Assembly (NCBI RefSeq): GCF_964204645.1
Contig: NC_134034.1
Coordinates: forward strand, 7,042,914-7,106,913
Source of the DNA: Tubulanus polymorphus
Lineage: Eukaryota; Animalia; Nemertea
Reading direction: 5' to 3'
Length of the DNA: 64,000 bases
Both the position numbers and the translations under genes were made by a program. The notes below the pieces were generated by a model. It had not been told where the DNA came from, did not search any database, and saw only the letters and a program-made list of their open reading frames with translations. This document shows positions 1-64,000 of this stretch, one piece after another (position 1 is the stretch's first letter; the number at the start of each line of letters is the position of its first letter).

Positions 1-974
1 CTATGTGTAATATCTTCTGTTGGATGTAAACAACTTATTATAGCCCATAGAAAACATTTTTTATCAAAATTTTGTATATTTATTACTGCTTTTGTTGTAA
101 ATGGTAGTTTAATATAACTTGTTCCATTTATACTATCGTCTTTATAATATGATAAATTATTTTCATCAATTGGTTTTGATTTAGTTAACTTATTATATTT
201 TGTGTTATAAACATGTAAAGTTATAAATATTATCTCATCAAATATTAAACCAGATCCTTCAAAATATTTCTCTTCTATTTTAGTTTTTAATTCATTATAA
301 CATTTATCTAATTTATCATCTATATGTTGTTTAGATATAATATGTTGTGAATGAGAATTTATATTATATATTGGTTTATCTTCAGATTTTATAAACTTTA
401 CTTTAACTGATATACTAATTTTTGGATATTCTACGTTTGTAATTATTTTTATTATTTCTTTCATATTTTCTAAATGTTTTTTATTTTCTTCTAACGTTTT
501 TCCTTTATGAAATTTAAACTCGATAGCTGCTGGACCAATATCACTTTTAAATGCTTCGGTTATCTCTATATCTTTATTATTATCTAATGAATTAATATAA
601 TTTCTTACATCTTCCATGTATGGTCTTTTATTGTTTAATTTATTTTTTATGCTTTTAATTGCGCTTTGTTTCTTATCGTTATCATTATCAAAATAATCTT
701 CACCTATAATATCATTATTCTTATTTCTAATATGACTTATAGATTTTAAATGTTCTTTATAATATCTTTTATCACTGAATGATTGATTACATGTATCACA
801 TTTATATGTTTCTTTTTCATTCTTTAATTCATCTAATTTAGTTTCTAATATATCATCTTCATATTCTAGTTTCAATTCATTCTCTAAATGTGTTTTAGTT
901 TTATTGTGTCTTGCTTTTTGGGATTTATCTATATCGATATTACATGTTGGACAGTAGTACTTATTTGCTTCCAT
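1..974 (-). CDS. Polinton/Maverick protein-primed DNA polymerase B, N-terminal part (two C2H2-type zinc fingers), runs off the left window edge
   Basis: ATG at 974, 324 codons without a stop by manual translation: MEANKYYCPTC..HNKTKTH, YKCDTC..HLKSISH, EGSGLIF, GTSYIKLP, KAVINIQNFDKKCFLWAIISCLHP, typical of the Polinton pPolB N-terminal region. Absent from the ORF track, presumably because there is no stop in the window. Confidence 0.8.
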   Translation of the reverse strand, partial: MEANKYYCPTCNIDIDKSQKARHNKTKTHLENELKLEYEDDILETKLDELKNEKETYKCDTCNQSFSDKRYYKEHLKSISHIRNKNNDIIGEDYFDNDNDKKQSAIKSIKNKLNNKRPYMEDVRNYINSLDNNKDIEITEAFKSDIGPAAIEFKFHKGKTLEENKKHLENMKEIIKIITNVEYPKISISVKVKFIKSEDKPIYNINSHSQHIISKQHIDDKLDKCYNELKTKIEEKYFEGSGLIFDEIIFITLHVYNTKYNKLTKSKPIDENNLSYYKDDSINGTSYIKLPFTTKAVINIQNFDKKCFLWAIISCLHPTEDITH

Positions 975-1129
975 TTTAATACTAAATTTTTTATTAAAAT
1001 TGAACATAACACTTACCTCTCAACGCGTCCCGCCACGTGTGAGTCCTACCACGTGTGAGTCCCGCCTATTTATACTACTCAACAGTGGGGGAAACCCAGC
1101 TGCGTGTTGAGACTTGTAAATTATGAGGC

Positions 1130-7050: not shown

Positions 7051-8444
7051 TAATCAGTGGTTAGAAAACCGGCAACTCTATTTGAGCTCTGTATGTATAT
7101 AGCTGATTACAAAAACTCGCATGATTGTTTTCAATTGTAAGGAATTAATTAACTTCATCATAAAGAACGCGTTACCATCCAGGCAAACGTACAGCTTCGA
7201 ATAATAAGCTTGGTCGAACGTGCGCCGCATTGGCAGTTAGAAATCAACATTCACATATACAGGACGTATTGGATATTATCTCTCGAAACACAGTTTACAG
7301 TTCTAAATCTAAATGTAAGTACCGTTTTTTGTGGTTATTATGAAGTAGGGAAACCTTTAAACATATTTAAGTACAGTAATTCATTTTCACAACAACGCTG
7401 TGAGTATAAGACATCCGAAAGGGGTTATTTGTATTAATATACATTTAACAACAGCTCTGTGACTTTGAAATACTCCGAGCTGTAATAAAGTGAAATACAA
7501 GCCATTACCCAAACTCACAAGCTATGTTTTGACTAGTGTTAAATTTTAACATAACCCTGGTTCAACTTCAAGTTACTTATTTTCTACGCTAGTTCTCTTT
7601 TAGATAACAAAATCAAGACCATTGAATCAAGAAGGTGAAGATGGATGGATTCATCACAAGAGACTGAAGCTGTTTCATTATGCTGTATTATATATGCCGG
7701 AATTGCAGTTGCGCGTACATTCGTCGTTCGGCAGTTATTAATGGTGACGGCTGTTCTGTATCGATTGGTTACAGTTCTATGTTTGAATGTTGTAGTTTAC
7801 AGAATAAATTATATAATTGACGCATGGGCATCAAGCAAAAGCGGTCTTCTAGGACCGCTTTTCTATTGTTCTCCATTGTTCTATCTTCGATCGCTACAAT
7901 TTGCATAATAAATATGTGTTTATGAAATAGTAATTCCACCCGGTGTTTCGTTGAATTGATTTTCAGTTGAGGATTTATCATCAAGGATCCGAAATGACTT
8001 ATCTGGACGGTTATAGTTACCGCTCCTATAGATAGACAATAAGTAGTGGGATATTGAATACTAACTTAAATAAAAGTATTAAATAAAGGTCCAATGGCCC
8101 TGTGGCTCACCACTAAATCATTGAGTGCAAATATTGTCAAAAATATTATACTAAATATGAATTAATTTGGATTAGAAAAGTATAGTAATTTATGCGCCTG
8201 CAGATGTCAGAGTGCTGTGTATACTATAATTGCCTATATATAGACTCGCTCAGGTGATTACTAACACACCACAAACAGTAACCTATATCGGCACACACGC
8301 GGCTGACAGCTGACGCGCGTATATACAAATGTACTAGCGACGCAGTATTAGATTGACCGCAATTTCACAAGTCAATCCATCCATCGACAAAACGTAAAAA
8401 ATACAAACATCAGACTTTTTTTCTAGAAATCAAAACAAATACAA

Positions 8445-24496: not shown

Positions 24497-26418
24497 GACG
24501 TCCCTTTGGTAAACGCGTATATGTGGATACTACGAAGTGTCTTCTTAACCGATTCTGGCTAGCTGACAAAGTCAGAAAAAAATGACGTCACTTGACGTCC
24601 GGTTTAGAGTTCATGGGGAAATCGGAAGTAGAATTACGTCAGCCTAAAATCCGGCAGCCCGTTAACTAAAATAAGGCAATTTATGGATCGGGTTATTTCA
24701 GAATTTATTTATTTCATGAAATTTCGAACAAGATTGGGTTGATGAATAGTTTAACAATGAACCGCGTTGATCGAACGAGTTCGAAAATAGCTGAAATCCC
24801 CTTAGCAACGGGAGCGAATTCATCATAATAAACAAACCACGCGCCGGCGCCCGGTTCAGCCATCGCAGGTTCGAATCCCGGAGAATTCTTCTTCTTCCGA
24901 TATCTGTCAACATCAACTGGTTGATGAAACACAGTGTATAGGTGTGCGCAAATAAATATATACAGACATTACTAATAAATTTAGTATTAATATAATAATA
25001 AAAATAATAATAATAATAATAGTGATAATAATAATCATAATTACGCTCTCGCGCGCGCGTGCGACAGTCAACCCCAGCCGCAGCGCTGAATTATGTAATC
25101 ATTTATGAGTCGCGTTGTCACGATTTGCTTAACATTTCGAACATTTCAAGGCATCGTGGCGGATCGGCGGCACGGTCTCGCTCCCGAGGAGCAGCGACAT
25201 CGCGGTCGGCAAAAACATTAGTCTCCGCCCCTTCTTTCACCAAATAAGGAATTCGGTACCGCTGGCCACGTGCACTATCAATTTTGAGCCGTAGATTCCC
25301 GGAAGATCAGAAACAAATAAATATTTTTCGCGAGAGAAATCAATTTTTGTATTGACATTTGAATTTTACTGCTGATAATTTATTCGATTTTTTTTCTGGC
25401 AGAAAAAAATTATGCGATTGATGCGTTTCAACGTGTCTTTCATTTTTTCTCGTCTTCCTTTACTCAAATGGAGCTAATTTCTAAATTAACACCAGGTCAA
25501 ATTCTTCATTCTTACAAACCGTCTCAGTTTCACCATAATGTCGGTTTTTCGGTACATTTCTGGTTTTACAAAGTGGTTTAAACCATTAAAAAATTCCTGA
25601 TACAATCTAAATCGAAATAGTAATCTTTTTAGCAGTGGTAAACCGACCTACCCCGGGTAGCCAAATAGACCAGTTTATATTTAGTTAAGAAATGGGTCAA
25701 GTTTTTTTCATAGAAAATTGAATTTCATTTGATCTACAGATCAAATTTTCATTTGATCTACAGATCAAATGAACAGGTTCGTCATAATTTTCCTAATCAA
25801 AATATAAGCCAAAATTTTTAATAACAGAAATTAATCGAACCTTAAAGTTGAAGTTTCATCTTCTTTCCCCCACCACTTAAATATATATGCCATTAGTTTT
25901 CATTTTTTCAAGCTTAACTATAAGAATTGATTTAATTTCTTCAATAATTTAATGCTCAGGGCCCAAATCTACAGAACAATTTCAATATCGAATAAAATTG
26001 ATAGACTTTAAGAGTTAGTAAGAGTTTCTTTCCAGTTTCATTGACAACAATTAATTTTCTCGGTGTTCCTTTAGGCTAAACAAAAATGATACCTTGTTTC
26101 TCCTCAGCGGCCGGGTCATTTTTGTAAAATATGATAAAATTTATAAACAGTTCATTTCTATAGCGGCCGGGTCTGTTATGGTAAAATTGATCACGATTTT
26201 AAAAAAAGTAATGTATAGGGTAGATAGGCAGCCGGCCGGGTCAACATTTAAGCTCAGCAGAGCGGAGAAACAAGGTATCAATTTTTTTAGCCTTAGTCAC
26301 TGACGCTATTTATAGTGTTTTTTGTTACACTCCATACGTGTGAATCTTAGTATGAAAAATTAAATCAAGCTGCAGTGACGAAGCGTCCGTCACTTCGATT
26401 TCATCTATTACATATTAG
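24497..26418. repeat. Copy 1 of a tandem 1.6-1.9 kb non-coding repeat (Helitron-like 3' hairpin)
   Basis: Colinear with 26441-26507 plus 43568-45082; both end AGTGACGAAGCGTCCGTCACT..ATCTATTACATATTA. Confidence 0.8.
26074..26292. mobile_element. Zator-like MITE (GG..CC termini, TTA TSD)
   Basis: TIR GGCTAAA..TGATACCTTGTTTCTCC; empty site CCTTTAGTCAC in repeat copy 2 at ~44930. Confidence 0.8.
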
Positions 26419-46439: not shown

Positions 46440-47325
46440 CAGCCCAGAGTACTAGAGTACGACACACACTCATCACCACAAGTAATTTTTTTCCTCACTC
46501 ATCACCACAAGTAATTTTTCCCATAATAAATGGGAGATAGAAAAGCATTCTTAGCGACAATAAATAACAGAATTAAACCAGCAAAAAATTGTTATGTTCA
46601 ATTTCAATAAAAAATTTGACATTAAAATGGAAGCAAATAAGTAGGCCTACTACTTTTCAACATGTAAAATTGATATAGATAAATCTCAAAAAGCAAGACA
46701 CAATAAAACTAAATCTCACTTAGAAAATAAATTTAAGTTAGAATATAAAGATGATATATTAGAAACTAAATTAGATGAATTAAAGAATGAAAAAGAAATA
46801 TATAAATGTGATACATGTAATCGATCATTCAGTGAAAAAAGATATCATGAACAACATTTAAAATCTAAAAGTCATATTAGAAATATGAATAATGATATTT
46901 CAGGTGAAGATTATTTTGATAATGATAATAATAAACCGAAGACAATTAAAAGAATAAAAGATTCTCTAGATAATAAGAAATCATATATGGAAAATGTTAG
47001 AAATTATATTTATTCATTAGGTAATAAAAAAGATATTGAAATAACCGAAGCATTTAAAAGTGAGATTGGTCCAGCTGCTATCGAGTTTAAATTTCATAAA
47101 GGTAAAACATTAGAAGAAAATAAAAAACATTCAGAAAATATGAAAAAGTATTATAAAAATAATTACAATAAATTTTTAAAATCTGAAGATAAACCTATTC
47201 ATAACATAAATTCTCATTCACAACATATTATATCTAAACAACAAAGATGATAGATTAGATAAATGTTTTAATGAAATAAAAAATAAGATAGAAGAGAAAT
47301 ATTTTGAAGGATCTGGTTTGATATT
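46440..47325 (+). pseudogene. Polinton fragment: start of a small gene (46530) and decayed pPolB N-terminus (ATG 46628), cut by a BEL element
   Basis: Colinear with 974-240 (MEANK..KARHNKTK..EIGPAAIEFKFHKGKTLEENKKH..EGSGLIF), with indels. Confidence 0.85.
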
Positions 47326-50160: not shown

Positions 50161-50248
50161 ATACTAATTGTAAAAGTAGGCTTTCAGACCAGAGGGCGAG
50201 AGGGCGAGACACCTCTCATCATCACAAGTAATTTTTTCCCTAACAAAA

Positions 50249-50490
50249 ATGGGAGATAGAAAAGTATTCTTAGCAACAATAAATAACAGAATAAAACCAG
50301 CAAAAAACAATTTGAAATAAAAAACTTAGCCGATGTTACAAAAGAAATTGAACATAAAATATTGAAATTAGAAAAGATAAAAACTAAATATGGAGATAAA
50401 GTATCAGCAAATTTAAGTTATTGTAGTGTTAGTACAACGCGAGAATTTAAAGTATTTTTACCTGATAAATGGGTTTCATTATATATCTAG
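50249..50490 (+). pseudogene. Small Polinton protein, possibly OB-fold/SSB-like
   Basis: MGDRKVFLATINNRIKPAK/..KILKLEKIKTKYGDKVSANL..FKVFLPDKW; 5' part repeated at 46530. Confidence 0.4.
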
Positions 50491-50929
50491 AATATCTAGA
50501 ATCCGAAATGACTTATCTGGACAATTTAATTGCTCCGCGTAGATAGACCCAAAAGTAGTGAGATGGTGCCGTACGGCACCCACATGGTGATATTCAATTA
50601 ATCAAAAAAAATTATTTTTTTGCTTTTTTTCTAAAATGTTAATCAATTTTTTTTATTGTGAATTTTGGAATTTCAGAAGTATTTTCATTTTTAATAGCAA
50701 TTGTTTCAGAATTATTAATATCATAAATTCTATTTGATTTCTTATACCAACTACACCCAATCAAAATGAATACAATTACAAATCCAGTTGTAAATATAGA
50801 TATTCATCAAATATTCTATTATTAGAAGGAGAAGAAATAACAATATTTTCACCATTTTTACTAACATTTTTATTACTTATTTTTTCTTTTTTATATTCTT
50901 GTGATTTAATTCCTAATTCCCGAGACCAT

Positions 50930-51530
50930 TCAATTTGTTTCTATGATCTCGGTTTTTCCTTTACAGTTAATTCTTTCACCTCTCGCACTTCGCTCATTTA
51001 TTATAGAAAAGTTTTTACTTTCAATATTTGAAAATGTTATAACTCCAGTTGATGATAATGTCATAAATCCACCTAATTGAAATGATAAATACCCAATCCA
51101 TTTATTTAATTCAGTCATAACTAAATAATCATTTTTTAAATCGGAATATAATCTAATTTCATCTTCAATTGGTAGCATATATTTACATAATTTACTATTA
51201 CCTTTTACTACATTTTCTGATATCGCATCATTAATTCTAGCTATTCTCGCAGTTTCGTAAATCTTAAATAATTTAATAATTTGATCTGGTTTCATTGTAT
51301 CTAATTTATTATAAGATAAATTTTTACCAATAAAAGTTTTACATTTCCCAGATGCTATTTATATTTCTAATTGATGTTTGCAATAGAGATAATATTCATA
51401 ATTATTTGTTGTAACATCATTCAAAACACCATCATCTGGAGTTAATTTTGTTTCTGTTATTCCTAAATAATCTAAAGTTTTTTCAATTGGAACATCACCA
51501 TTTTTAGATTTTATTTTCTTTTCACCTCCT
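50930..51530 (-). pseudogene. Conserved hypothetical Polinton protein
   Basis: Homologous to 9285-9750. Confidence 0.65.
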
Positions 51531-51759
51531 ATTTATATAACAAACAAATTAGTTGTGTTGTTGCAACTAGAATTCAACTAGAATTCAACTAGAATGTAAC
51601 TAAACATATGCTAGATTAACAAGCTAGTTGAAATATTGTTGTTTTTATTTATTTTTTGTTGAATTTTATTTGATTTTTTTGTTTCAACTACCAATAACTA
51701 GATTTCAACTAGAATGTAACTAAAAATATACTAGATTAACAAGCTAGTTGAGTTTAAAT

Positions 51760-52358
51760 GAATTAACATTTAAATGGGTGTTGTAATCGAAGTAATTTTT
51801 ATCTTTTGTTATTTTTCAATTTATCCATATATTCATTATGTAAATCATGTGGAATAATATCATTTTCCTCAAGTGCATTTTTCATCGATTTCCTATCTTT
51901 ATTGTAGAATAAAACTAAAAATCTAATGTTTTCTCTAAATCTTTAACAATTGAATTATATTTTTGATTTAAACCCATGTTGTTATCCCAAAATGTTTCCC
52001 AGATAAAGCTAGATAGCATAACTCACCGTTCTCTCACTTTTGAATCATGTAAATTTGCACAATCATCTATGATAAATAATGTATTTGATCCTTTATAAAT
52101 ATCAATTGCTATTTTAATACAATTATCTAAATTTTCTTTAACTGTTTTAGGATCTAATACAATAAATTTATTATTTCTAGTAATATTTATATCATAAGTT
52201 TGATTAAATTCATATGTCGGACAAAATAATACCATATAATCAAAATAGTTTTTATAAACAGTTTCTAATAAATTTAATATAAAATAAGTTTTTCCACAAT
52301 TTGTTACGCCAGAAATTAACATATTATTAGGCTCAAATATAAATAATTCCTTATTCAT
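51760..52358 (-). pseudogene. A32/FtsK-HerA-type DNA packaging ATPase
   Basis: Walker A ISGVTNCGKT, Walker B FIIDD, downstream SGKHFGI..NQKYNSI in shifted frames. Confidence 0.85.
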
Positions 52359-53340
52359 TTATATATTTTTAATTTTACTTGATAATATCCATTCATTAAA
52401 TTTATCTGGCCATCCAACCCCTTTACTAAAGAATATTTTTTTCTATTAACAGTTTTTGTTTTTAGTACCTTTTCAATTTTATAATCTTGTTCTACATTTT
52501 CAGTAGTTAAACTTAGTTCTTCTTCATAAAAATACCCATCAACTTCTTCACCATCTAAATCTTCTAATTTATAGACGTATGGTTTTGTTGTTATTACTTT
52601 TTTTATTTTATATATTTCTCTCGTAAAATTACGATCGTATCCTTTGTCAAATATCTTTTTATACTTAGAAATTCTAACATTTTGACCAACTTAAATTTAG
52701 GTTCACCAAAATCATCTACAATAAATGCTCCATATAAATTATTCCAAACAATTTCAGCATTTTCAGGTTTTCTAGCATCAATAGGTTTCATTCCAATAGA
52801 AGAATGATAAGAATTATTATAACCTTCTATCAATTTTGGTAAAACATCAATCCATTTGAAAGTACTATTAGCTGTAAAATATTTCCACATTCTTGTTCTT
52901 AATGTTCTATTAAATCGTTCAACAACTGCTGCTTTTTATCCGATTTTGTTGAAAAATATTTAATATTATGATTATCTAAGAGTTCATGAACAAGTGAATT
53001 ATCAAATTCTTTTCCATCATCAAATTATTTATTTTTCTGGTTTTAGTTTATCATCCGAAAGAAATTTTCTTAAAACATTTGATGTTTGTACAGCATCTTT
53101 TCTATAAAGTGGGAAACTCCATACATAACGACTAAAAATACCAATCATATTCAGTATCCACCAATAATCATCATTATCTTTCTTAATATTTTTCATATCA
53201 ATTAAATCTCCTTGCCACTGTTGATCTACATAACTTACCATAGTTTTACGAGTTTTATATTTTCTAATAATTTTTTATGTGTTGTATATGTTGGCTGTTC
53301 TAACATAAAATCAGTTATATCTTTATATTTAACTAACTTT
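52359..53340 (-). pseudogene. Retroviral-type (rve) integrase with C-terminal chromodomain
   Basis: QWQGDLIDM, DDGKEF, AVVERFNRTLRTRMWKYFT, YNNSYHSSIGMKP, YKIEKVL..GWPDKFNEWI; frameshifted, N-terminus deleted. Confidence 0.9.
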
Positions 53341-53347
53341 TGTGGGA

Positions 53348-54362
53348 TTATTTATTGAGTCCTTTTTTCTTTTTCATGAATAATTGTATCCCATCTTTAG
53401 TATTCTGCAGCTTTTTTCCAGAACCATGTAAGGAATTATCCTCTGTTGTTCTAAAATCTAACCATAATGCATTTTTATTGCCGGTATAGTAATCAATTTG
53501 ATTAATATTATAATTTTCAGATGATTTTACTTTTTCATTCATAAAATGTTTTCTAATTTCTGGCCACTGATCTATCATTCTCATTCCTTGGCAAAATACT
53601 TATTTGCTATTCCTTCAATTGCTATTTCTACTTTTGATATTTCAGGATTATAATAATCATCAACATTTATTGCGCCATTATGCTAGCAATATTTTCATCA
53701 GTTACTGTATCATATTCTAAACGTATATTCGATAATTTAAAACCCATATCTTTACCAACGCTAGATAATACAATTTCATTAACAGGAGCAAATGTTATTT
53801 CGAATATAATATCTTCTTGAATTGCATATTTATATAAAGGTGCATTATTATTTATCAATTCAAAATCTAATGGAATTTTATGTTTGCTTCCATAAATCTT
53901 TTTGATCAAATTATCTGCGGTACGAGTTACTATTGCGTCATTAGCTCCTGATCTTAATTTATTTTGGTTTTCTGATTGGATGCCTTGAAATATCATATTA
54001 TTTCTATTTTCTTTAGTTAACCATAAATCTTTATAATGCATAAATAAATTATAATCATCTAATGAGAAAACTGTTTCTAGTCCAATCTTTATAGTTAATT
54101 TTTTAATCAAATATCTTCCAACATTATCGACAACATAATTATTATCATTACCAGTTACATTTATATCAGCTGATAAATAAATACTATTTGGAACATAAAA
54201 AGTATTTGATTTAATCTCGGGATTCTAACATATAAAGTTTCATCAGGATTATTAATAATTAATATTAGAAGGATTATGAGTAATTATATGATGAGATCTT
54301 TCTGCTTCAATAGCATTAGATATTCTTGAATTCTTAGACGGATTAATATAACTCCCACTCAT
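53348..54362 (-). pseudogene. Probable major capsid protein
   Basis: MSGSYINP..HIITHNPSNI..NVGRYLIKKLTIKIG..YKDLWLT..LSNIRLEYDTV..LWLDFRTTEDNSLHGSG; family recognised from memory and from position; internal deletions. Confidence 0.65.
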
Positions 54363-54382
54363 TTATTTAACAAAAAAATTAA

Positions 54383-55820
54383 TTATCTATTTTTTATCCT
54401 ATTCACTAACCCAAAAATAATAGCACTTACAACTGTAATTAAAAATGAAATAATATGTTCAGCAGCAAAGTTAAGAATATTTCCTGCAGATTTTAATATA
54501 AAACCAACAATTGATGCAATAATTCCAGGTAAAGCTGCAGCAGATTTTTTAGATAGTTCCCATAAATATTTTGCTAATATTTTTAAACCACCCTTAACTT
54601 TATCTTGTATAGAATTATTTGGTGGTTTATCCGGTTTATTGGGTGTAGGTGTAGATTTTAAGGAATTTGATATACCTAAACCAATTGTTGTAAATAACAT
54701 AGTTACAGCTATTAGAATTGAAAGAATTGTTATACCTTCTAATTTAAATAATAATTTTATTTTATCTTTCAATGATATTTTAGAATTTGGTTTTAACAAG
54801 AAGTTTTTAAAAATAACTTTTAATCTATTAATATTATAATCATATGGTTTTAATGATAATTTAATTTCTTCTTTCTGAATTCTATGTTATAATCTCAATC
54901 ATCTTTTTCTTTTTCTAAATATGCATTTCTTTTTTTAAATTCAATTTCTTCAATAACTTTATTTTCTCTATCTAATTTTAGTTGTTCTATTTCTTTAATT
55001 TTATCAGTTTTATCTTTTTCTAAAGTTCTAATTTTAAAATCTCTTATACTTTAATCATGCGCAAATTTATCAGCTTCATTTCTTATACTAATAATTTCTC
55101 TAATTGCTTTATCAGAAAATATATTTAAATCTTCTAATTGTTGATCTGTTGCATCAAGTAATCCATTTGGTAAAAGTTTTTCAATTGGAACTTTATTTGA
55201 TTTAAGTTTACTAGTTTTGGAAGTTATATTCTGTTCAGAAGTTGTTTGTGTTTCTAAATTATTATTAATTGTTTCAAATAATTCATTAATTCTTTCTTTA
55301 AATACTCTTTTATTTTGATTTATTTCTCCTTGTGTAACATTTTCTATTTCATTACTATTACTTATTCTTTTAATTCTAGATGATTCTAAATTATTCAAAG
55401 TTGATTCTGCTAATATTTAGTTTTGATTATAAGTGATATCAATATAATAATCATCTTTCACATGATAATAATATTCAGCATCTAAAGATTTTAATTCTGT
55501 TACTAAAAGTCTGGCGCCTCTGGCATTTATATTATACCCAGATCTTTCAAATATAGGTTTGAAATTATAAATATATTCATAACATTCTAAATTTTGCTTT
55601 ACTAAATCCGGATTTTCATTTTCAGGATTTATTCTCGATTTAGTTCTTCTATCAAATTCATCTGTTGATAGTCATTTAGAACCACTATCTGCTAAATTAG
55701 AATTATATGCTGATCCATCATCATTATCAATATTAGTTTCTGCATCATTATAATCATCATCAATATACCGATCATTATTATTTCCCATGTCTTCCATTTC
55801 ATAATCTTCTCCACCTTCTG
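54383..55820 (-). pseudogene. Large coiled-coil protein with C-terminal hydrophobic helices (putative virion membrane protein)
   Basis: ORF pieces 55051-55398 and 54383-54799 (EGITILSILIAV..AAALPGIIASIVGFIL). Confidence 0.55.
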
Positions 55821-55840
55821 CAATTTAAATTATACAAAAA

Positions 55841-57085
55841 TTAAATTTTTAAATATAATATTCCTCCTATTACAATTCCTATACAAGTTATAGCTAATTT
55901 AGTATTTTCATGGGATTTATTATCATTATTACTTTTAATTATGTCATGTTGAATATTATCAGTTTTTATATCACCGTGTGGGTGCCCTACGGCACCATTT
56001 TCTGTAGTATTGTAATCTTTTATTTTAGAATCATTATCCAATTTAATATTCTTAGTTTTAGTTTCGGTTGATTGAATATGTTTTTTAATGTTTTCACCTT
56101 CAATTAATTTTGGAGCAGTAATAATCTTTTTATTTATATCATTCAATCCAAATGAATTATTTATTGTTGCAGTCTTACTTAGATTATTATAACCAATTAT
56201 ATTTCCCATTTTTAAAACTAAATCATTAGAAATAATTAATAGATTAGGGCCTATACAATAATTTAATCTAATATGTGATTTATCTAAATAATTTTGATAT
56301 CTTACAATGTTTTCTCGAATCGATCTATTTTTATCATTATGAATGGAATCTTCAAATAAAACTTTGAATTGTTTCTGTGTATCAAATGAAGTATTATCAT
56401 TTCCAATTATTGGGGGTATTGTTTCAACTTTAGCGCCTAGAAAACATATCAAATAAGTTCTAATTGATTGATTTATTCTTTGTATACCTGATTTTGTAAA
56501 ACCTTCACTATTTTCTAAAATAAAATTAATCCAACCATTATTATTATCAATTTTATAATTATGATAAGCTCCAATTCTATGCATATAATCAATTCTTTTT
56601 ATTTCATACTGTTCACCAATACCTTGCAATTTACCATGCGCTCTAAAATCGGAATTAATATTTATATTAAATTCATTACATATTTTATAAAACTTAGATA
56701 GATTAATATTATTATCCATTTCTTTAAAATATTTAGATCCGGGCAAAGGACATTCTAATTCATTTAATATTATTCTGATTTGAAAATACGTGTGAAATCT
56801 AAATATTGTGTGAATTAATTTTAAATCAGTTTTCATCTAAGTTATTTAAATGATTATTCCAGATTATACCACAGCCAGTTGTTGCACAATAAACAGCAAA
56901 ATTTAATTGATTCTGCCAATATTTAATATAAGATTTTACATAATATATATGATATCGAGTACAAGTAACTTCATATCTATTAAATATATTTTCCATTTTA
57001 GAAATAAAAAACTATGTTTCAGTAACATAAATTTCTTAATTAGTTAATGAATTTAAAACTAAATTTTTATATGTAATGTTTTTAT
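55841..57085 (-). pseudogene. Conserved hypothetical Polinton protein (WQNQLNFAVYCATTGCG motif, C-terminal TM anchor)
   Basis: 331-aa ORF plus a frameshifted upstream part. Confidence 0.6.
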
Positions 57086-57091
57086 TAAAAT

Positions 57092-57337
57092 CTATTGCGT
57101 TAGCTTCGTCGACTGATTGAAAATCTCTATGTGTAATTTTCTGATTATATAATTCTTTATTGATGTAATCCATATAGTTTTGCCTCTTTTCTCTATATTC
57201 TTCTGCTGCTTTATTTTTTTTAACGATAAGTTGTGTCTTTTTTGTTCTGATAATGAACCATTTTTATCAATATGTTTAAATAAATAACCACCACCTGTAA
57301 TTGCCGATCCTATAATAGTTATTATTGCAGATGCCAT
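57092..57337 (-). pseudogene. Truncated duplicate of the small MASA..GGGYLF protein
   Basis: Paralog of 57986-58411. Confidence 0.65.
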
Positions 57338-57533
57338 TTATTTTACAAAAAAGTTATGCATTTATATAGGAGGAATATATTTTTGTTTTTCCAAATAATC
57401 AATAGTTAAATTAGATAAAGTAGCTGCTAACGTTAATTTTAAAATGTAATATATTGCAGGAATATTATATCTAATTGATTTATTATATTGGAAAGCTTTT
57501 GGAAAATTATCTACCATTTATATAATTAAAAAA

Positions 57534-57970
57534 TTAATAATTTATTAATTCTTTTAATAATTTATCCTGTTCTTCAACTGTTATATTACCATTTAAACTT
57601 ATTATATAATCTAGTGTATTTTTTTATTTATTAATTTCTTTTATATTAGTTTTAATTTTTTCTTAATTACTTTTTATATTTGTAGTTTTGAACTTGTACC
57701 AGTTAAAACACTTGATGATAATCCTAGCACCCCAATTGATATAGCTAAAGGTGTTAATGGACTGAATATTGCTAGAAATGTTATTACAAAACTTATTGTA
57801 ACTAAACCACTGATAATAAAATAATATATAATTTTAGATTTTAAATATCTTTTCTTTTTTATCATTACGTCACTTTCAAATTCTAATATTTGTTTTTCTA
57901 AATATGTTTTTAATTTAGTTTTATTTATATCATGAGGAATAATATCAATATTATCAACTTTATCATCCAT
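57534..57970 (-). pseudogene. Small two-TM protein
   Basis: IIYYFIISGLVTISFVITFLAIF / LAISIGVLGLSSSVLTG. Confidence 0.55.
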
Positions 57971-57985
57971 TTATTTAGAAAAAAA

Positions 57986-58411
57986 TTAATAATTAGTAAA
58001 ACTATACGCTACAAATATAACAATAACTGTTCCACCTAAAATCCATATAATATCATATTTCTGTTGTTCTTTACTTGGGGTATAATAATCTGATAATTTA
58101 GGTTTGTATAGATGTAATTTTTCTTTATTGGTTACCGCGTTATATAAACTCATTGCATCATCAACTGATTGAAAATCTCGATGTGAAATCTTCTGATCAT
58201 ATAATTCTTTGTTGATATAATCTATATAGTTTTGTCTCTTTTCTCTTTATTCTTCTACTGCTTTATTGTATTTCTCTAATGCTAAGTTATGTCTTTTCTG
58301 TTCTGATAATGATCCATTTTTATCAATATGCTTGAATAAATAACCACCACCAGTAAATGCTAAAGCGTTAACAATTGCCGATCCTATAATAGTTATAGTT
58401 GCAGAAGCCAT
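57986..58411 (-). pseudogene. Small Polinton protein with hydrophobic N- and C-termini (one internal stop)
   Basis: MASATITIIGSAIVNALAFTGGGYLFKHIDK..RHNLALEKYNKA..KPKLSDYYTPS..IIWILGGTVIVIFVAY. Confidence 0.7.
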
Positions 58412-58426
58412 TTATTTAACAAAAAA

Positions 58427-58651
58427 TTATGCATTTATATAGGAGGACTATATTTTTGTTTTTCCAAATAATCAATAGTTAGATTAGATAAAGTAACTGC
58501 TAATGTTAATTTTAAAATAGCATTTATATCAAATCTATCAACATTAACACTTCCCATTTTAAATACTTTTTTTAATTGAATAACCAACAGTTCCAACTGA
58601 TAATAATGCTCCATTATATAATCCAGTTATTATCCACTTATAATCACTCAT
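58427..58651 (-). pseudogene. Small hydrophobic Polinton protein
   Basis: MSDYKWIITGLYNGALLSVGTVGYS..LTLAVTLSNLTIDYLENK; 3' half duplicated at ~57355-57445. Confidence 0.55.
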
Positions 58652-58654
58652 TTA

Positions 58655-59008
58655 TTAATAACAAAAATTACTATCTTCAAAATATTTATTTATCTTAGTT
58701 ATAATTATTTCAACATTTATAGTATTATTAGTTTCATTTTCATATATTACAGTTATTATTCTTTTGATATCATCAATGATAAAATCTTCATCTAATTCAT
58801 AAAATCTTAATGACGCTCTAATTAAATTGGCAATCTTTTCTACACTAAAAGTTTCTTCATCTATTGTTTTTTCATACTCAAATGTTGTTTCATTAGAAAA
58901 TGCAATATTTTTAATATGTGTAATTACATCAGTAATGTTAAATTTCATTTCTTTCTCATGTTTAAAATCAAATCCAAAACATATACTCGGTCCTACTGTT
59001 ATATTCAT
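58655..59008 (-). CDS. Hypothetical 117-aa protein
   Basis: Intact ORF preceded by the element's gene-start motif. Confidence 0.55.
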   Translation of the reverse strand: MNITVGPSICFGFDFKHEKEMKFNITDVITHIKNIAFSNETTFEYEKTIDEETFSVEKIANLIRASLRFYELDEDFIIDDIKRIITVIYENETNNTINVEIIITKINKYFEDSNFCY

Positions 59009-59026
59009 ATTTATATAGTGAAAAAA

Positions 59027-59773
59027 TTACTCTTTCCATTTTATAATTAATTCATAAATTACAGGAAAATTATTTAAATCAATTAAATATCCATTATGAT
59101 TTCTAACTTCTAATCTAAAATTATTAAAATGAGGAATTCATGGTTTGAAATCACATTCTGTTAAATTATAATTTATTTGAGTTCCAAATTGTTTAACATT
59201 TTTAGCGGTAAAATATTTAATATACTAGAACTACAAATTGTTTCTTTAGTTGCTTCGAAAGTTTTTGTAGGATCGATTGAATTGCAATAAATATAAAAGT
59301 GTGTAAAAGGTATTATATTTGAGATGCCTTCTGCACTTCCAGTAATTGTAAGCGGTTCAATTCCTAACATTTTAGCCATTGGTTTGTTTACCATAAATTT
59401 ATGTTGTTCATTAGATATCTTTATTCTTATTTTATTAGTACTATCAATTTTATTAAATTTAATTTCAAATACAGAAGTGCCCCTTAATAGAGCTTCTATT
59501 AATTTCCTGCGCTAATGATTCTGAATTATATAATCCTGGTTTTAAAAATAGATGAAACCATTTATCTTTATATCTCATATAAATCATAAACTCTCTATGT
59601 TCAAAAGTTTTATCCGATATATTATAAAAAGAACTACGTAAACTTACATTTACTAATCTTAAATCAACACAATTCTTAAATTCTCTATCTAATTGTACTA
59701 GTAAATTATGTGATTTAGAATTTAACAGTTTTCTAGAATCAACAAATATACTATATTCTTTTAATTCTACCAT
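59027..59773 (-). pseudogene. Probable minor capsid (penton, single jelly-roll) protein
   Basis: IFVDSR..LRLVNVSLRSSFYNIS..KPGLYNSESL..FYIYCNSI..ILNILPL..FRLEVRNHNGYLIDLNNFPVIYELII; frameshifts. Confidence 0.65.
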
Positions 59774-59843
59774 AATTTATAACATAAAAAAATTACCTTC
59801 AACTCCAAAAAGTCAGTTTTCTGAACTCATAAATTTTAGCAAA

Positions 59844-60126
59844 ACCACCCGACCTGGCTCGCAGAGTTTTTCAGGGATAAGCATCCCTTTATTGAGAGGC
59901 GCCACGAGATACTTATCCCTTAGCATTTCTACTTACAAACCTGCAACCCACGCCTCACCAATTCTCCTTCAATGGTTGACAGGAAACACATTATATTTAA
60001 GGCGCCTAATGCATTTCCTATCAACCCCTTACCCCCGAAGGGAGGATCGAAAGTCGAAACTGAAGAACCACGGAGGGTGGACAAAGGTGCATGTTCGAAA
60101 TGCCCCTGCAAGCCAGGCCCGGCGGC
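59844..60126 (-). ncRNA. Putative structured RNA (~283 nt) with two GGCGCC loops and a cUUCGg tetraloop
   Basis: 23-bp closing helix plus 20-bp and 15-bp hairpins, 10 G-U and no A-C pairs on the minus strand; GC-rich island in AT-rich viral DNA. Confidence 0.6.
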
Positions 60127-60414
60127 ACTCCAGTGGTGGAATGAATTTCCGTATATACTTAGCTTAAACTCCGAAGTCAATATTAACGGTGTTTCCTAGA
60201 AAAACGTTATTTGAAATTATAAATTATTTCGAATGAAAAAATATTTGAAAAGGAAACTAATTAATGATTTACGGATTTTTAACGTAATTATATAATTTTT
60301 TATCAAATTAATAATCAATTAACATAGATAATTTTAATTAAATTCAAATTCAAATTCATTTCAGTATTTCACTCATCACTAAAAATTAATTTTAATAAAA
60401 TTTTTCCTTAATAA

Positions 60415-61666
60415 ATGGATGAGAAGATACCATGTGAAATTTGTGGTGAACTTCTAAGAAAAAATAATATGGCTCGACATATGAAAAAACATGATAAAAA
60501 TTATAAACCCCCTAAAATAAACTGCCAAAATTGTAATAAATTATTCTCAAGAAATTATGTTTAAAAACATTCAGAGAAGTGTAAAATTAATGACACAACG
60601 GTTAATGTTGATAGTAACGAAAGTAATAGTAATTCTGTTGAAGTTGAATCTGAAATTATTTGGAAAAGACCTTTCTTATTCTATGATAAGGATAATATAA
60701 AAGATTATATCTGTGAGCCTTGTCGATTAAAATATAGACCGGAAAATATAGAAGATTGGGAGAATTATCAATTTCGTAAAGCACATATAGATAAAATTTC
60801 TAATAAATTTGAAACTGAATTCAATGAAAGAAAAAATAAAATATTAGAAAAAATGAAATATGAGAAAACATTACCAGATAATGAAGAAACACTTAAAAAG
60901 TTGGAAAAACAATATAATGAATTAGTAAGAAAAACATATTATTGTAAATATTGTAAATTGATTATTACAACAAGTAATTCAAATCTACATAATAGAACAA
61001 TAAAACAAAGAAAACGTAACAAAATACCAAGAGCTTAATGAAGATTTATTACCAAGAAATGATAGAAAAAAATGTCCACAATGTATTTATGGGCACTTAT
61101 GACAAGAAGGTCCTGTGATATTTTGTAATGAATGTGGATGGGAAAAAATTTATGGGGTGATGAAAAAACTTGAGATATTCTTATAGAACCAATATTAAAA
61201 TATCTAGATGAAATTTTTAAGATATTTTCTATGGAAGATCGTACACCAGAATATAAGCAATGGCTTGAAAAAATGAAAATGATAGAAAAATAAAAATGGT
61301 GAAATAACTAAAAAAGATATAATAAAAACAATTATTCCGTCAACATTTAACACACAAGAAAAGAAAATGTATTTATATCTATTATTTAACGATTATTATA
61401 GAAAACCTAAATTAACAGAAGAAGATATGGAAAATATAAAAGAAACATTCAAAAAAATATTAAGATATTATGTGGATAATAGAATAACAGATTCAATTAA
61501 TTATGAATTCTTTTTAAATAAGATTGTAAATTTTTTAAACATCGATATTATAATTACATTTGATATATTAACAAACAAAAAGAAACAAAGAGAGCGAGAT
61601 GAAATGTGGTACAATATAGAACTTTATTTAAATGAGAAAAATGAAATGGAAGAACCTAAACAATAA
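60415..61666 (+). pseudogene. Multi-zinc-finger protein with C-terminal VLTF3 (poxvirus late transcription factor 3)-like domain
   Basis: CEIC..HMKKH, CQNC..HSEKC, CKYC..H, ribbon CPQC..CNECG, then PKLTEED..FKKI..SINYEFFLNKIVNFL..RDEMWYNI. Confidence 0.55.
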
Positions 61667-61722
61667 AACAAAAATGAAGAAACCAGTAGTGATTTCGAGT
61701 ATGATGATATTGATTTTATGTT

Positions 61723-64000
61723 TTAATAACCATAAGGTAATGTTTTTATTCCATCATCCAAAATATATCTTTTATCGTCGAATGGATTTAAACTAGTTTT
61801 TTCAACTTCATTAATGTACATCTCGTGATCTTCTGATCTTAAACAATTCATTTTATGTTTCATTACAATTGAGTTATATAAACACTTTATATAATCTTGA
61901 AATTCTATATGTTTGTCAACCACATGCTTTATGATTCCTTTTAACTTTTAAGCTTCATGATCTTTTGTTCTATAACTATACATTTTACTTCTTATCCCAA
62001 CGAATTCAATCATTTCATCACCCCCTAATTCATCTTTAAACTTACCAGGAATCTTTTATTATCATTGCTAAATAGTCCATGATCTTTGGGATAATTGCTA
62101 GAATCAAAATGATGTTTTAATGTTTTTAAGTCTTTTGTTATGTCATTTGTCTTGATTTTTAGTATGTACGCATCAAAAATTTTTAAAACATTTAATTTAA
62201 CAATTATTTATTCAATTATTTAAAAAAATATCAAACTATTAGATGTTTAAATCATTCAGCTTAATTCAATACTTAGTTGACTACTGACTTTCAATGTAGA
62301 ATTGTTACTCTTTTCACAGTTTTTATGTTTAATTGTTTGATAATGCTTTGATTTATGTGATCTTAAATATTTACCTCCACAATTACAATACACTCTTTCA
62401 TTAGGATTGAATTGTCTAAATTCATTATCTAAATCACATTGAATACCAATATCCTTATAAGAATTATTATAATAATCTAATTCACATTGAATTCCAATAT
62501 TTGATTTATTTTCATAATGAATAATTTGTTTATCAAAATTAAAATATAATTGTCATTTTTCAATTCTTAAGTCGGTTAAACCAGAACTAGAGTAGCAATA
62601 ACAAGGATCAACATTAAAATGATTCAAATTAACTTCTCTAAATTTTTCCAATATATCAGCCAATATCATAACATCTGATTTCAAGTATAAATCTACTAAT
62701 TCACCATGATTTTCTATCTAAATGATTCCAAATATTTAATGTTCTATTAAAAACTTCATCTTTTACATACTCCTCTTTTAATTGATCATAAAATTGTTCT
62801 TTTAATAATTCTGTTACAATAAAATCATCATGTGTTTTATAAAATGAATAAGGAATTGCGCCTTTATATCTCAATAATTTAAAATCTTGTTCATTTGGAT
62901 AATAATGTCGAGTTATTATAAAATCATTATCAACTAAACTTTTTGCTTAATTATCTAATGAACTTGCTAGAAATCTATAAGAATCTAAAAATCTAATGCA
63001 ACTAAATTGAAATGAAATATAATTTTCAGATGTTTTAGCTAATAGTTTGAAATCATATTTTCTAAAATTTGTACCATTCATAGCATTATATTCTTCTATT
63101 TTTTCATTAGTTGCGCCCAATTTTCCTGATAATTTTTTATAAATAGATGGGTATCATACCCTGATAAATTATGAAATAATATTGGTACGAAATTAACTTT
63201 CTTAGCTTGTAAATTACAATCTTCATGAGCAGCTCCGCGGTATTTTGAATTTAAATGGTCATGATCTCTAACTCTTTTATCAAATGAATAAAAACGTTTT
63301 TCACAGTAACGATAATGAGTTGAATAATTGAAATCAATTTCACCTTCTTTTGTCATAACTATTCTTTTATTTTTGTTTGATAATTTTGCAAAATCACATT
63401 CTATTTCAATTATTTTGTTACAAAAAGCATTAACTACATCTTCACCTCTAAGAGAAATATATTGACTTTCATATAATTCAGGATAATTTGATTTTATGTA
63501 AATTCCATAAGCAGCAGCTCTTTGGTGAACTTTTTAAATTCTGTTTATAATCGGTGGATCTTTAATTATATCTTCATTTAATTCATTTCCTTTATCCATT
63601 GATTTTAAAAATTGCTTTTTGTTATATATTTCTTTTCTATCTTGATCAGTTAATTCTTTATTCAACGATTCAAAATCCCCATAAATTACAAATGGAACAA
63701 TATTTTTAAATTTATGATTAGTAATTTTCAACTTACAATCTTTTTTTTGGCATTATTAATTTACAAAAATCTTTATTATCACATAATTCTTTATGTTTTA
63801 TTAATGTATTCTCAGTCATAAATTTAGATAAACATTTTCTACATAGATAAATTCTATTATGATGATCACTTTCTGTTCTAAAGAATAAATCAATTTGTTT
63901 TAACCACATATAATGTTCATTTTCATCTTTTTTGTAATGTAACAAATCTATAGCATTTTCATCATCATAATATTCTTTTAAATATAAAGCTTCTAATGTA
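61723..64000 (-). pseudogene. Protein-primed DNA polymerase B with endonuclease VII-like insert; polymerase core deleted
   Basis: VIYGDFES (Exo I), RDHDHLNSKYRGAAHEDCNL, FHNLSGYDTH (Exo II), FLDSYRFL, YLKSDVMILAD (Exo III); C-terminal GKFKDE..SKMYSY..KLKGI..DDKRYI..TLPYGY. Confidence 0.92.

Follow-up and report, generated by a model that had tools for sequence, protein, structure and literature searches.

A candidate structured RNA gene with twin palindromic loops beside the penton gene of a decayed Polinton in Tubulanus polymorphus

Results

A decayed Polinton carries a structured element upstream of its penton gene

The window analysed here, a stretch of 64,000 nucleotides from the nemertean Tubulanus polymorphus, holds a decayed Polinton/Maverick at positions 50300 to 64000 (the left edge is approximate), and the rest of it contains Pao and Gypsy-type retrotransposons. 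The assignment follows from the presence of a major capsid piece (53670-54224), a penton gene, an integrase (rve) piece (53032-53274) and an A32 ATPase piece (52026-52358). In addition, a VLTF3-like gene lies on the plus strand (61286-61663) and PolB-like pieces extend up to the window end. The integrase and capsid Pfam matches fall below the curated cut-offs because these genes are in pieces. The nearest Atlas cluster is mostly eukaryotic, Arthropoda being the commonest label where one is known.

The penton (minor capsid) gene maps to the minus strand at 59173-59773 and is broken by a frameshift near 59490. A full-length relative (P0040), 47% identical, was modelled from a 5-sequence alignment (pLDDT 65.8; a single-sequence model with pLDDT 39 was left aside), and this model matches the mavirus penton (E 3.5e-7), as well as Sputnik and the adenovirus penton base. 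On the same strand, between 60126 and 59841, lies a candidate non-coding RNA gene of about 285 nt, delimited by the first paired G and the first run of four T residues (T4). An earlier note on this DNA had placed the end of a structured RNA about 70 nt before a minor-capsid start codon; this is indeed the arrangement that we observe, since 70 bases separate the element from the ATG at 59773, and the relative of that gene is modelled as a penton.

Several other features of the window were recorded. The structural-gene region contains a tandem duplication of about 1.05 kb, 87-93% identical (57100-57454 and 58155-58527), and a non-coding portion inside the Polinton (51576-51751) bears a 56-base direct repeat together with short AACTAG-type repeats. 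A Polinton fragment is repeated 3.7 kb apart (46469-46588 and 50215-50307) around a Pao-like retrotransposon piece, which suggests a nested insertion. Positions 1-1500 are the end of a second Polinton-like element, with an AT-rich zinc-finger/PolB-like frame (3-1007, minus strand) by repeats with a CCAAT-like core. Finally, a relative of the Polinton major capsid (P0029, 50% identical) is labelled Bartonella, and is probably host DNA in a bacterial assembly.

The minus strand of the element folds into three long helices

The minus strand of the element has a predicted folding energy of -137.2 kcal/mol (z -8.65), a value matched by 0 of 200 shuffles, and the plus strand of the same stretch folds more weakly (-91.9 kcal/mol, z -4.13). 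A bias toward the minus strand is also obtained when the stretch is folded as single-stranded DNA (z -5.98 vs -3.76). With a G+C of 0.51 against 0.23 on each flank, the element is the GC-rich island in AT-rich DNA that had been described.

Specifically, a closing stem of 23 bp joins the 5' arm (60126-60104) to the 3' arm (59866-59844), with 22 of 23 positions paired (17 Watson-Crick, five G-U and one mismatch). Hairpin 1 (59974-60026) is formed by a 20-bp stem, 60026-60007 with 59993-59974, paired throughout (17 Watson-Crick and three G-U) and showing pair probabilities of at least 0.96 in the predicted fold; its 13-nt loop begins with the palindrome GGCGCC (60006-60001). Hairpin 2 (59871-59922) has a 15-bp core in which 59920-59906 pairs with 59887-59873 at all 15 positions (13 Watson-Crick and two G-U), and variants lengthen this stem by 1-3 pairs; the same palindrome occurs in its loop (59903-59898). 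Recounting in the sequence thus reproduced the three helices, their coordinates and their G-U counts as first reported, and located both copies of GGCGCC within hairpin loops. It also bore out that the ten wobbles of these stems are all G-U on the minus strand, with zero A-C (two-sided p 0.002).

An irregular central arm (59923-60103), in which 60103-60061 faces 59972-59923, bears hairpin 1 and a small UUCG region. This arm is only partly resolved, with pair probabilities of 0.35-0.97, and some of its predicted pairs are broken by two common read variants. Two smaller structures proposed in the earlier note fared unevenly here. The CCC-UUCG-GGG hairpin is present as sequence but absent from the predicted fold, in which a competing helix has a probability of 0.35; moreover, the closing C is different in 414 of 435 reads, and a conserved C(UUCG)G tetraloop was rejected. 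The GCAUUUC/GAAAUGC helix is predicted with a probability of 0.97 in the window copy, but shows variation at its outer end in the second of the two subfamilies of copies described below. GCAUUUC could pair in more than one way, a hint of alternative folds. Three TTTCGA hexamers were noticed within 60 bases (60044-60100) in the 5' half of the element. Judging by the reading frames themselves, a coding role was rejected: the overlapping minus-strand frames are either stop-rich or without a suitable start.

The two hairpin loops could pair with each other or with themselves

The two loops are complementary in sequence and unpaired in the predicted fold, as is the case for kissing loops. The predicted loop-loop duplexes reach -14.1 kcal/mol for loop 1 with loop 2 (L1-L2), -14.1 for L1-L1 and -14.3 for L2-L2. 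Of 20,000 shuffled loop pairs, 125 attained the L1-L2 energy and 4 had one and the same six-base palindrome in both loops, although GGCGCC is over-represented in the whole window (13 occurrences against 2.9 expected). Hairpin 1, hairpin 2 and a kiss of 6-7 bp would add up to 41-45 bp, and the two strands of the central arm measure 43 and 50 nt. Arm lengths therefore make it plausible, as a model, that the hairpins fold back beside the central arm and kiss within one molecule.

Among 40 of the 53 variant rows from the reads, no variant fell in either palindrome and no covariation was seen across the loop-loop helix. Set against the remaining loop positions, the invariance of the palindromes does not reach significance (0 of 12 vs 3 of 19, p 0.26), loop 1 being readable in the first subfamily only. 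The palindromes, being invariant, offer no compensatory change that would prove kissing; on the complementarity and geometry just described, we nevertheless consider it likely.

Because both loops are palindromic, the same elements could also join molecules. According to this alternative, a stand-alone RNA would form dimers, chains or rings that scaffold proteins within a virus factory or particle. Each palindromic loop is predicted to pair with itself about as well as with its neighbour, a kiss within one molecule would need complementary loops only and not two palindromes, and engineered branched RNAs are reported to assemble by loops of this kind (PMC11567899, PMC11289419). The arm lengths, however, suit a kiss within one molecule, and two sticky loops would be expected to give chains or rings, not networks. 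We regard multimers as unlikely, and the intramolecular kiss is the arrangement considered in what follows.

Copies of the element vary in ways that preserve pairing on the minus strand

Copy variation was read from the raw DNA reads of one species label (run X4), and covariation refers here to tables of these reads. The figures below cover the listed variant rows, 40 of 53: 25 of them, in the three long stems, the stem ends and the two loops, were tallied, and the other 15 fall in the central arm and the UUCG region. The tally includes three end pairs of hairpin 2 that were added after the variants had been seen. It comprises 18 distinct pair outcomes, one of which is common to both subfamilies and, although printed twice, was counted once. 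The two subfamilies were phased by two contigs of a second run (X3).

On the minus strand 16 of the 18 stem changes keep a standard pair, compared to 7 of 18 on the plus strand. Three are Watson-Crick double changes of the compensatory type (60116/59854, 59920/59873 and 59922/59871). The first of these, in the closing stem, is carried by 84% of reads; hairpin 2 accounts for the other two and for five one-sided, pairing-compatible changes, in its core or at its end. The two failures are a 5% variant at 60008 and a position that lacks a partner in the window copy as well. Where a single transition hit a Watson-Crick pair, G-U resulted in all 7 listed cases (p 0.008); in the worst case, in which three C>T rows beyond the listed ones would all be stem-breaking, the count becomes 7 of 10 (p 0.17).

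The earlier note had named strand-specific C>T decay of DNA palindromes as a process that could undo its reading of the G-U bias. C>T and G>A rows are equal over the whole stretch (9 and 9), and in the long stems only pairing-compatible ones occur, so that such decay does not explain the bias and was rejected as the source of the wobbles.

The stems also bear on a possible small-RNA precursor, a miRNA- or shRNA-like transcript whose closing stem or hairpins Dicer would process into silencers of host or helper-virus genes. At 15-23 bp, the stems are short substrates for Drosha. Moreover, the stems vary yet keep their pairs, and the closing arm of the second subfamily differs, so that shape rather than seed sequence appears to be conserved. 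A closed 23-bp terminal stem with a U-tail is what such a precursor would show, and Dicer accepts VA RNAs and retroviral Pol III hairpins as substrates (parts of PMC4378190); all considered, we hold this reading to be very unlikely.

Read depth in run X4 was 630-667 over most of the start of the penton gene, dropped to 39-62 in the spacer between penton and element, rose again to 450-779 over the element, and beyond 60240 did not exceed 21. The element is thus present in many copies, at an abundance close to that of the penton gene, and is kept while the adjoining spacers are replaced. Conservation between the subfamilies is strongest in hairpin 2, where depth peaks at 779. In 201 reads of the second subfamily another 3' closing arm stands before 59862, and the T-run after it is unchanged. 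At 60063, 347 of 450 reads are 3 nt longer than the window copy. In four to six reads each, 46-136 bases are skipped (within 59899-60064), with loss of hairpin 1 or part of the central arm; these may be deleted copies or library artefacts. In the 381-nt contig of run X3, whose library kind is unstated, no transcript ends were seen, and runs X6, X7 and X9 gave 0 records, which speaks neither for nor against transcription.

A short block upstream of the element (60209-60239) has a depth of 338, against 192 and 21 beside it, and lies between two replaced spacers. It is 30 bases long and might serve as a distal promoter element or, on the plus strand, as a promoter of the early type.

A depth about equal to that of the penton gene indicates that the element is part of the Polinton rather than a free MITE, the unrelated insertion that the earlier note had asked to exclude; we found neither a second copy in the window nor a target-site duplication in the flanks, and a free MITE was rejected. 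The same observations weigh on the wider idea of a structure at work in single-stranded DNA (on the strand displaced during protein-primed replication or packaging) or of an inserted palindromic mobile element. The GC-rich island and the DNA fold, which favours the minus strand too, would suit it. On the other side stand the absence of excess solo copies, the Pol III-like layout described below, and the hairpins of three related Polinton loci (L005, L006 and L008): these are AT-rich and show no strand preference in their folding, whereas the element does. We judge this explanation, too, to have little chance of being correct.

In conclusion, all together the pairing-compatible variation, the module-like conservation and the outcome of the Rfam search given below support the proposal of a strand-specific structured RNA encoded by the Polinton, and we are highly confident that the minus strand carries a functional RNA structure.

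The penton gene has a poxvirus-late-type promoter of its own

Seven minus-strand gene starts in the window have a T-tract and then TAAAT, located at the ATG or a few bases away. The penton is one of them; there the motif occupies 59774-59795 on the minus strand and is distinct from the RNA. The pattern also matched one plus-strand site at 63130, which looks spurious. The background frequency of the motif is 25 in 308 ATGs for the minus strand of the Polinton and 50 in 1,602 elsewhere in the window. In a syntenic relative (L004) TAAATG is present at 14 of 14 plus-strand starts examined, a fifteenth, at 7588, lying outside this count. The combination of T-tract and TAAAT corresponds to the poxvirus late promoter (parts of PMC11980589 and PMC3061580), and Polinton-like viruses occur with entomopoxviruses (parts of PMC11296320, in whose text TAAAT has 0 occurrences). 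These promoters, together with the VLTF3-like gene, suggest that the Polinton multiplies with a poxvirus-type helper, and on this sequence evidence such a dependence is likely.

The element lies ahead of the penton ATG on the same strand, in the same place in both subfamilies, and might be taken for a structured 5' leader or IRES of the penton or structural-gene mRNA. A leader would share the transcript and keep a fixed position before the start codon. Instead, the late promoter stands between the two, seven AUGs and three T-runs lie on the way from 60126 to the penton ATG, and the spacer measures 88 nt here and 393 nt in the one contig of the other subfamily that joins penton and element. Furthermore, L004 has an ORF where the RNA would lie and no strong fold in its 11.5 kb, although this contig is incomplete and the RNA could sit elsewhere in that element. 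The gene's own promoter, the intervening AUGs, the variable spacer and the absence in L004 disfavour the RNA as a penton leader; we consider the leader or IRES reading of the earlier note highly improbable.

The packaging RNA that it had also suggested, a counterpart of phi29 pRNA gearing the A32 ATPase to the capsid, draws on the capacity for loop-loop pairing and the position at the head of the virion genes, but the element was not found in L004, an incomplete contig that nonetheless holds penton, major capsid and ATPase, no RNA requirement is known for A32/FtsK-type motors, and we rate this function as very improbable.

Homologs were sought in Rfam and in other Polintons

The earlier note had not recognised the element as a described family, and the Rfam 15 covariance models agree: they gave no match inside the element up to E 10. 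The best match, SNORD31 (16 bits, E 5.7), lies outside it, and at the gathering score there were 0 matches across the 64 kb. Beyond this species, five DNA patterns and queries returned 10 loci, all of them chance matches of at most 26 nt in unrelated prokaryotic or phage DNA, and protein-led scans of viral and genome contigs found no homologous loci. A metagenome scan yielded 18 Polinton loci, of which only L004 reaches the penton gene; none contains a sequence resembling the element or a GC-rich, asymmetric fold comparable to its own. A GC-rich spot in L014 was rejected as a counterpart, being a coding repeat.

Long, near-perfect AT-rich palindromes were observed between convergent genes in L005 (3098-3182), L006 (3742-3826) and L008 (3175-3262). 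They are possible bidirectional terminators or DNA cruciforms.

The element is laid out like a Pol III gene

Counting from 60126, the first paired base, which we take as the start, a TATA-like box lies at -31 to -25 (60151-60157, minus strand). Type-3 Pol III genes have a TATA box about 30 nt upstream, and Pol III TATA boxes at a matching position are described in parts of PMC7279448 and PMC1790723. Further upstream, at about -67 to -49, we tentatively recognise a PSE-like motif (60175-60193), identical at 9 of 15 positions to the human H1 PSE and at 9 of 19 to the U6 PSE, both printed in PMC1790723 (seen there in part); the consensus is thus human and not that of the host, and the PSE is taxon-specific (parts of PMC9841428). 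Positions that score as well with a TATA downstream number 3 in 27,260. A narrower PSE core is unique, but it was defined after seeing the sequence, and the region is variable between copies in the reads.

Within the element, an A-box-like 11-mer at +12 to +22 (60105-60115) has three mismatches to the tRNA consensus, and a B-box-like 11-mer at +74 to +84 (60043-60053) has two, both leading G residues being absent. The candidate terminator (59841-59844) is the first T4 run after 60200 and coincides with the last pair of the closing stem; the element contains six T3 runs but no T4, and a T5 at 59811 and a T7 at 59792 follow. No tRNA or host snRNA gene was found within the 64-kb window. At 24846-24876 a B-box-like motif follows a GGCGCC site, possibly in a host tRNA-derived SINE.

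Each of these signals (TATA, PSE-like motif, weak A and B boxes, T4) is weak alone; together they favour a separate Pol III gene. Judging from this layout, we lean towards a separate Pol III transcript as a reasonably probable product of the locus.

Discussion

The element has its closest counterparts among viral Pol III RNAs, which are few and come from adenoviruses, some herpesviruses and retroviruses (parts of PMC4378190). As described in parts of the same source, adenovirus VA RNA I and II are viral and highly structured, with a paired terminal stem followed by a T-run and an A-box-like motif at +12, and they act as decoys for PKR and Dicer. The candidate RNA likewise ends in a T4 after its terminal stem and has no internal T4. 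Unlike VA RNA, it is about 285 and not about 160 nt long, has degenerate A and B boxes, upstream TATA/PSE-like motifs and two palindromic loops, belongs to an integrated Polinton with poxvirus-type promoters, and has no Rfam match. Adenoviruses and Polintons are related, and the model of the neighbouring penton matches the adenovirus penton base.

The combination of an upstream TATA-like box with internal boxes recalls EBER1/2 (parts of PMC4378190 and PMC7279448); these come from an unrelated virus, show no sequence or Rfam match to the element, and are not described with palindromic loops in those parts of the literature. Host type-3 Pol III RNAs (7SK, RNase MRP/P, U6, insect telomerase RNA) resemble the element in size and in their PSE, TATA and T-run (parts of PMC9841428), but it matches none in Rfam even at E 10 and is present in many copies on a mobile element.

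Regarding the loops, the dimerisation initiation site of HIV-1 is a single cis palindrome on the genomic RNA that pairs between molecules. A GC-rich six-base palindrome in a hairpin loop is shared by that site, by Ty1 (PMC6844567) and by the element. In contrast to these single cis signals, two identical loops occur here in a single small RNA, probably free, that would be encoded by a DNA element.

The carrier itself resembles Polintons/adintoviruses (parts of PMC8502044) and the Polinton-like viruses associated with entomopoxviruses (parts of PMC11296320) in its capsid, penton, integrase, A32 ATPase, PolB-like and VLTF3-like genes. Term searches of the main texts of these two papers turned up neither an encoded non-coding RNA nor promoters. 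Our literature searches, mostly without subscription journals, found no paper joining Polintons with VA RNA and, by titles and abstract openings, no Pol III RNA reported from Polintons. By analogy, we would describe the element as a VA/EBER-like RNA of new architecture, outside every Rfam family, and probably a separate small RNA gene.

On these grounds we propose, tentatively and as a whole at somewhat less than an even chance, that the conserved minus-strand module is a stand-alone Pol III RNA of about 285 nt, locked by its loops and acting as a decoy in trans. Host Pol III would make the RNA from integrated or incoming copies, independently of the helper-type promoters of the protein genes. 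Transcription would start near 60126, as suggested by the TATA/PSE-like upstream sequence and the weak internal boxes, and would terminate in the T4 run where the closing stem ends. The two hairpins, of 20 bp (hairpin 1) and 15-18 bp (hairpin 2), would then fold back and kiss alongside the central arm of 43-50 nt. With both ends paired and with short, wobble-rich stems, the molecule might bind Dicer-type sensors and feed them poorly, acting in trans as VA RNA does for PKR and Dicer. That the target is the host defence against double-stranded RNA is a possibility drawn from analogy, and we hold it with still more caution.

In its boldest form, the proposal would describe a natural RNA origami, in which the two identical palindromic loops either hold a single molecule together as a two-helix bundle or connect several in rings and chains. 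Encoded by animal Polintons that parasitise poxvirus-type helpers, it would found a new Pol III class analogous to VA RNA, within the adenovirus-related lineage. The host would transcribe integrated copies while the protein genes wait for a helper polymerase, and the RNA would disarm or sense antiviral RNA defence; we consider this full version improbable.

A covarying RNA gene carried by a multi-copy Polinton, if true, would extend RNA-based host manipulation to widespread endogenous viruses and would bear on the origin of VA RNA. One element would then unite protein genes under poxvirus-late promoters with a single gene laid out for host Pol III, and its twin palindromic loops would offer a natural case in which to compare intramolecular with intermolecular kissing.
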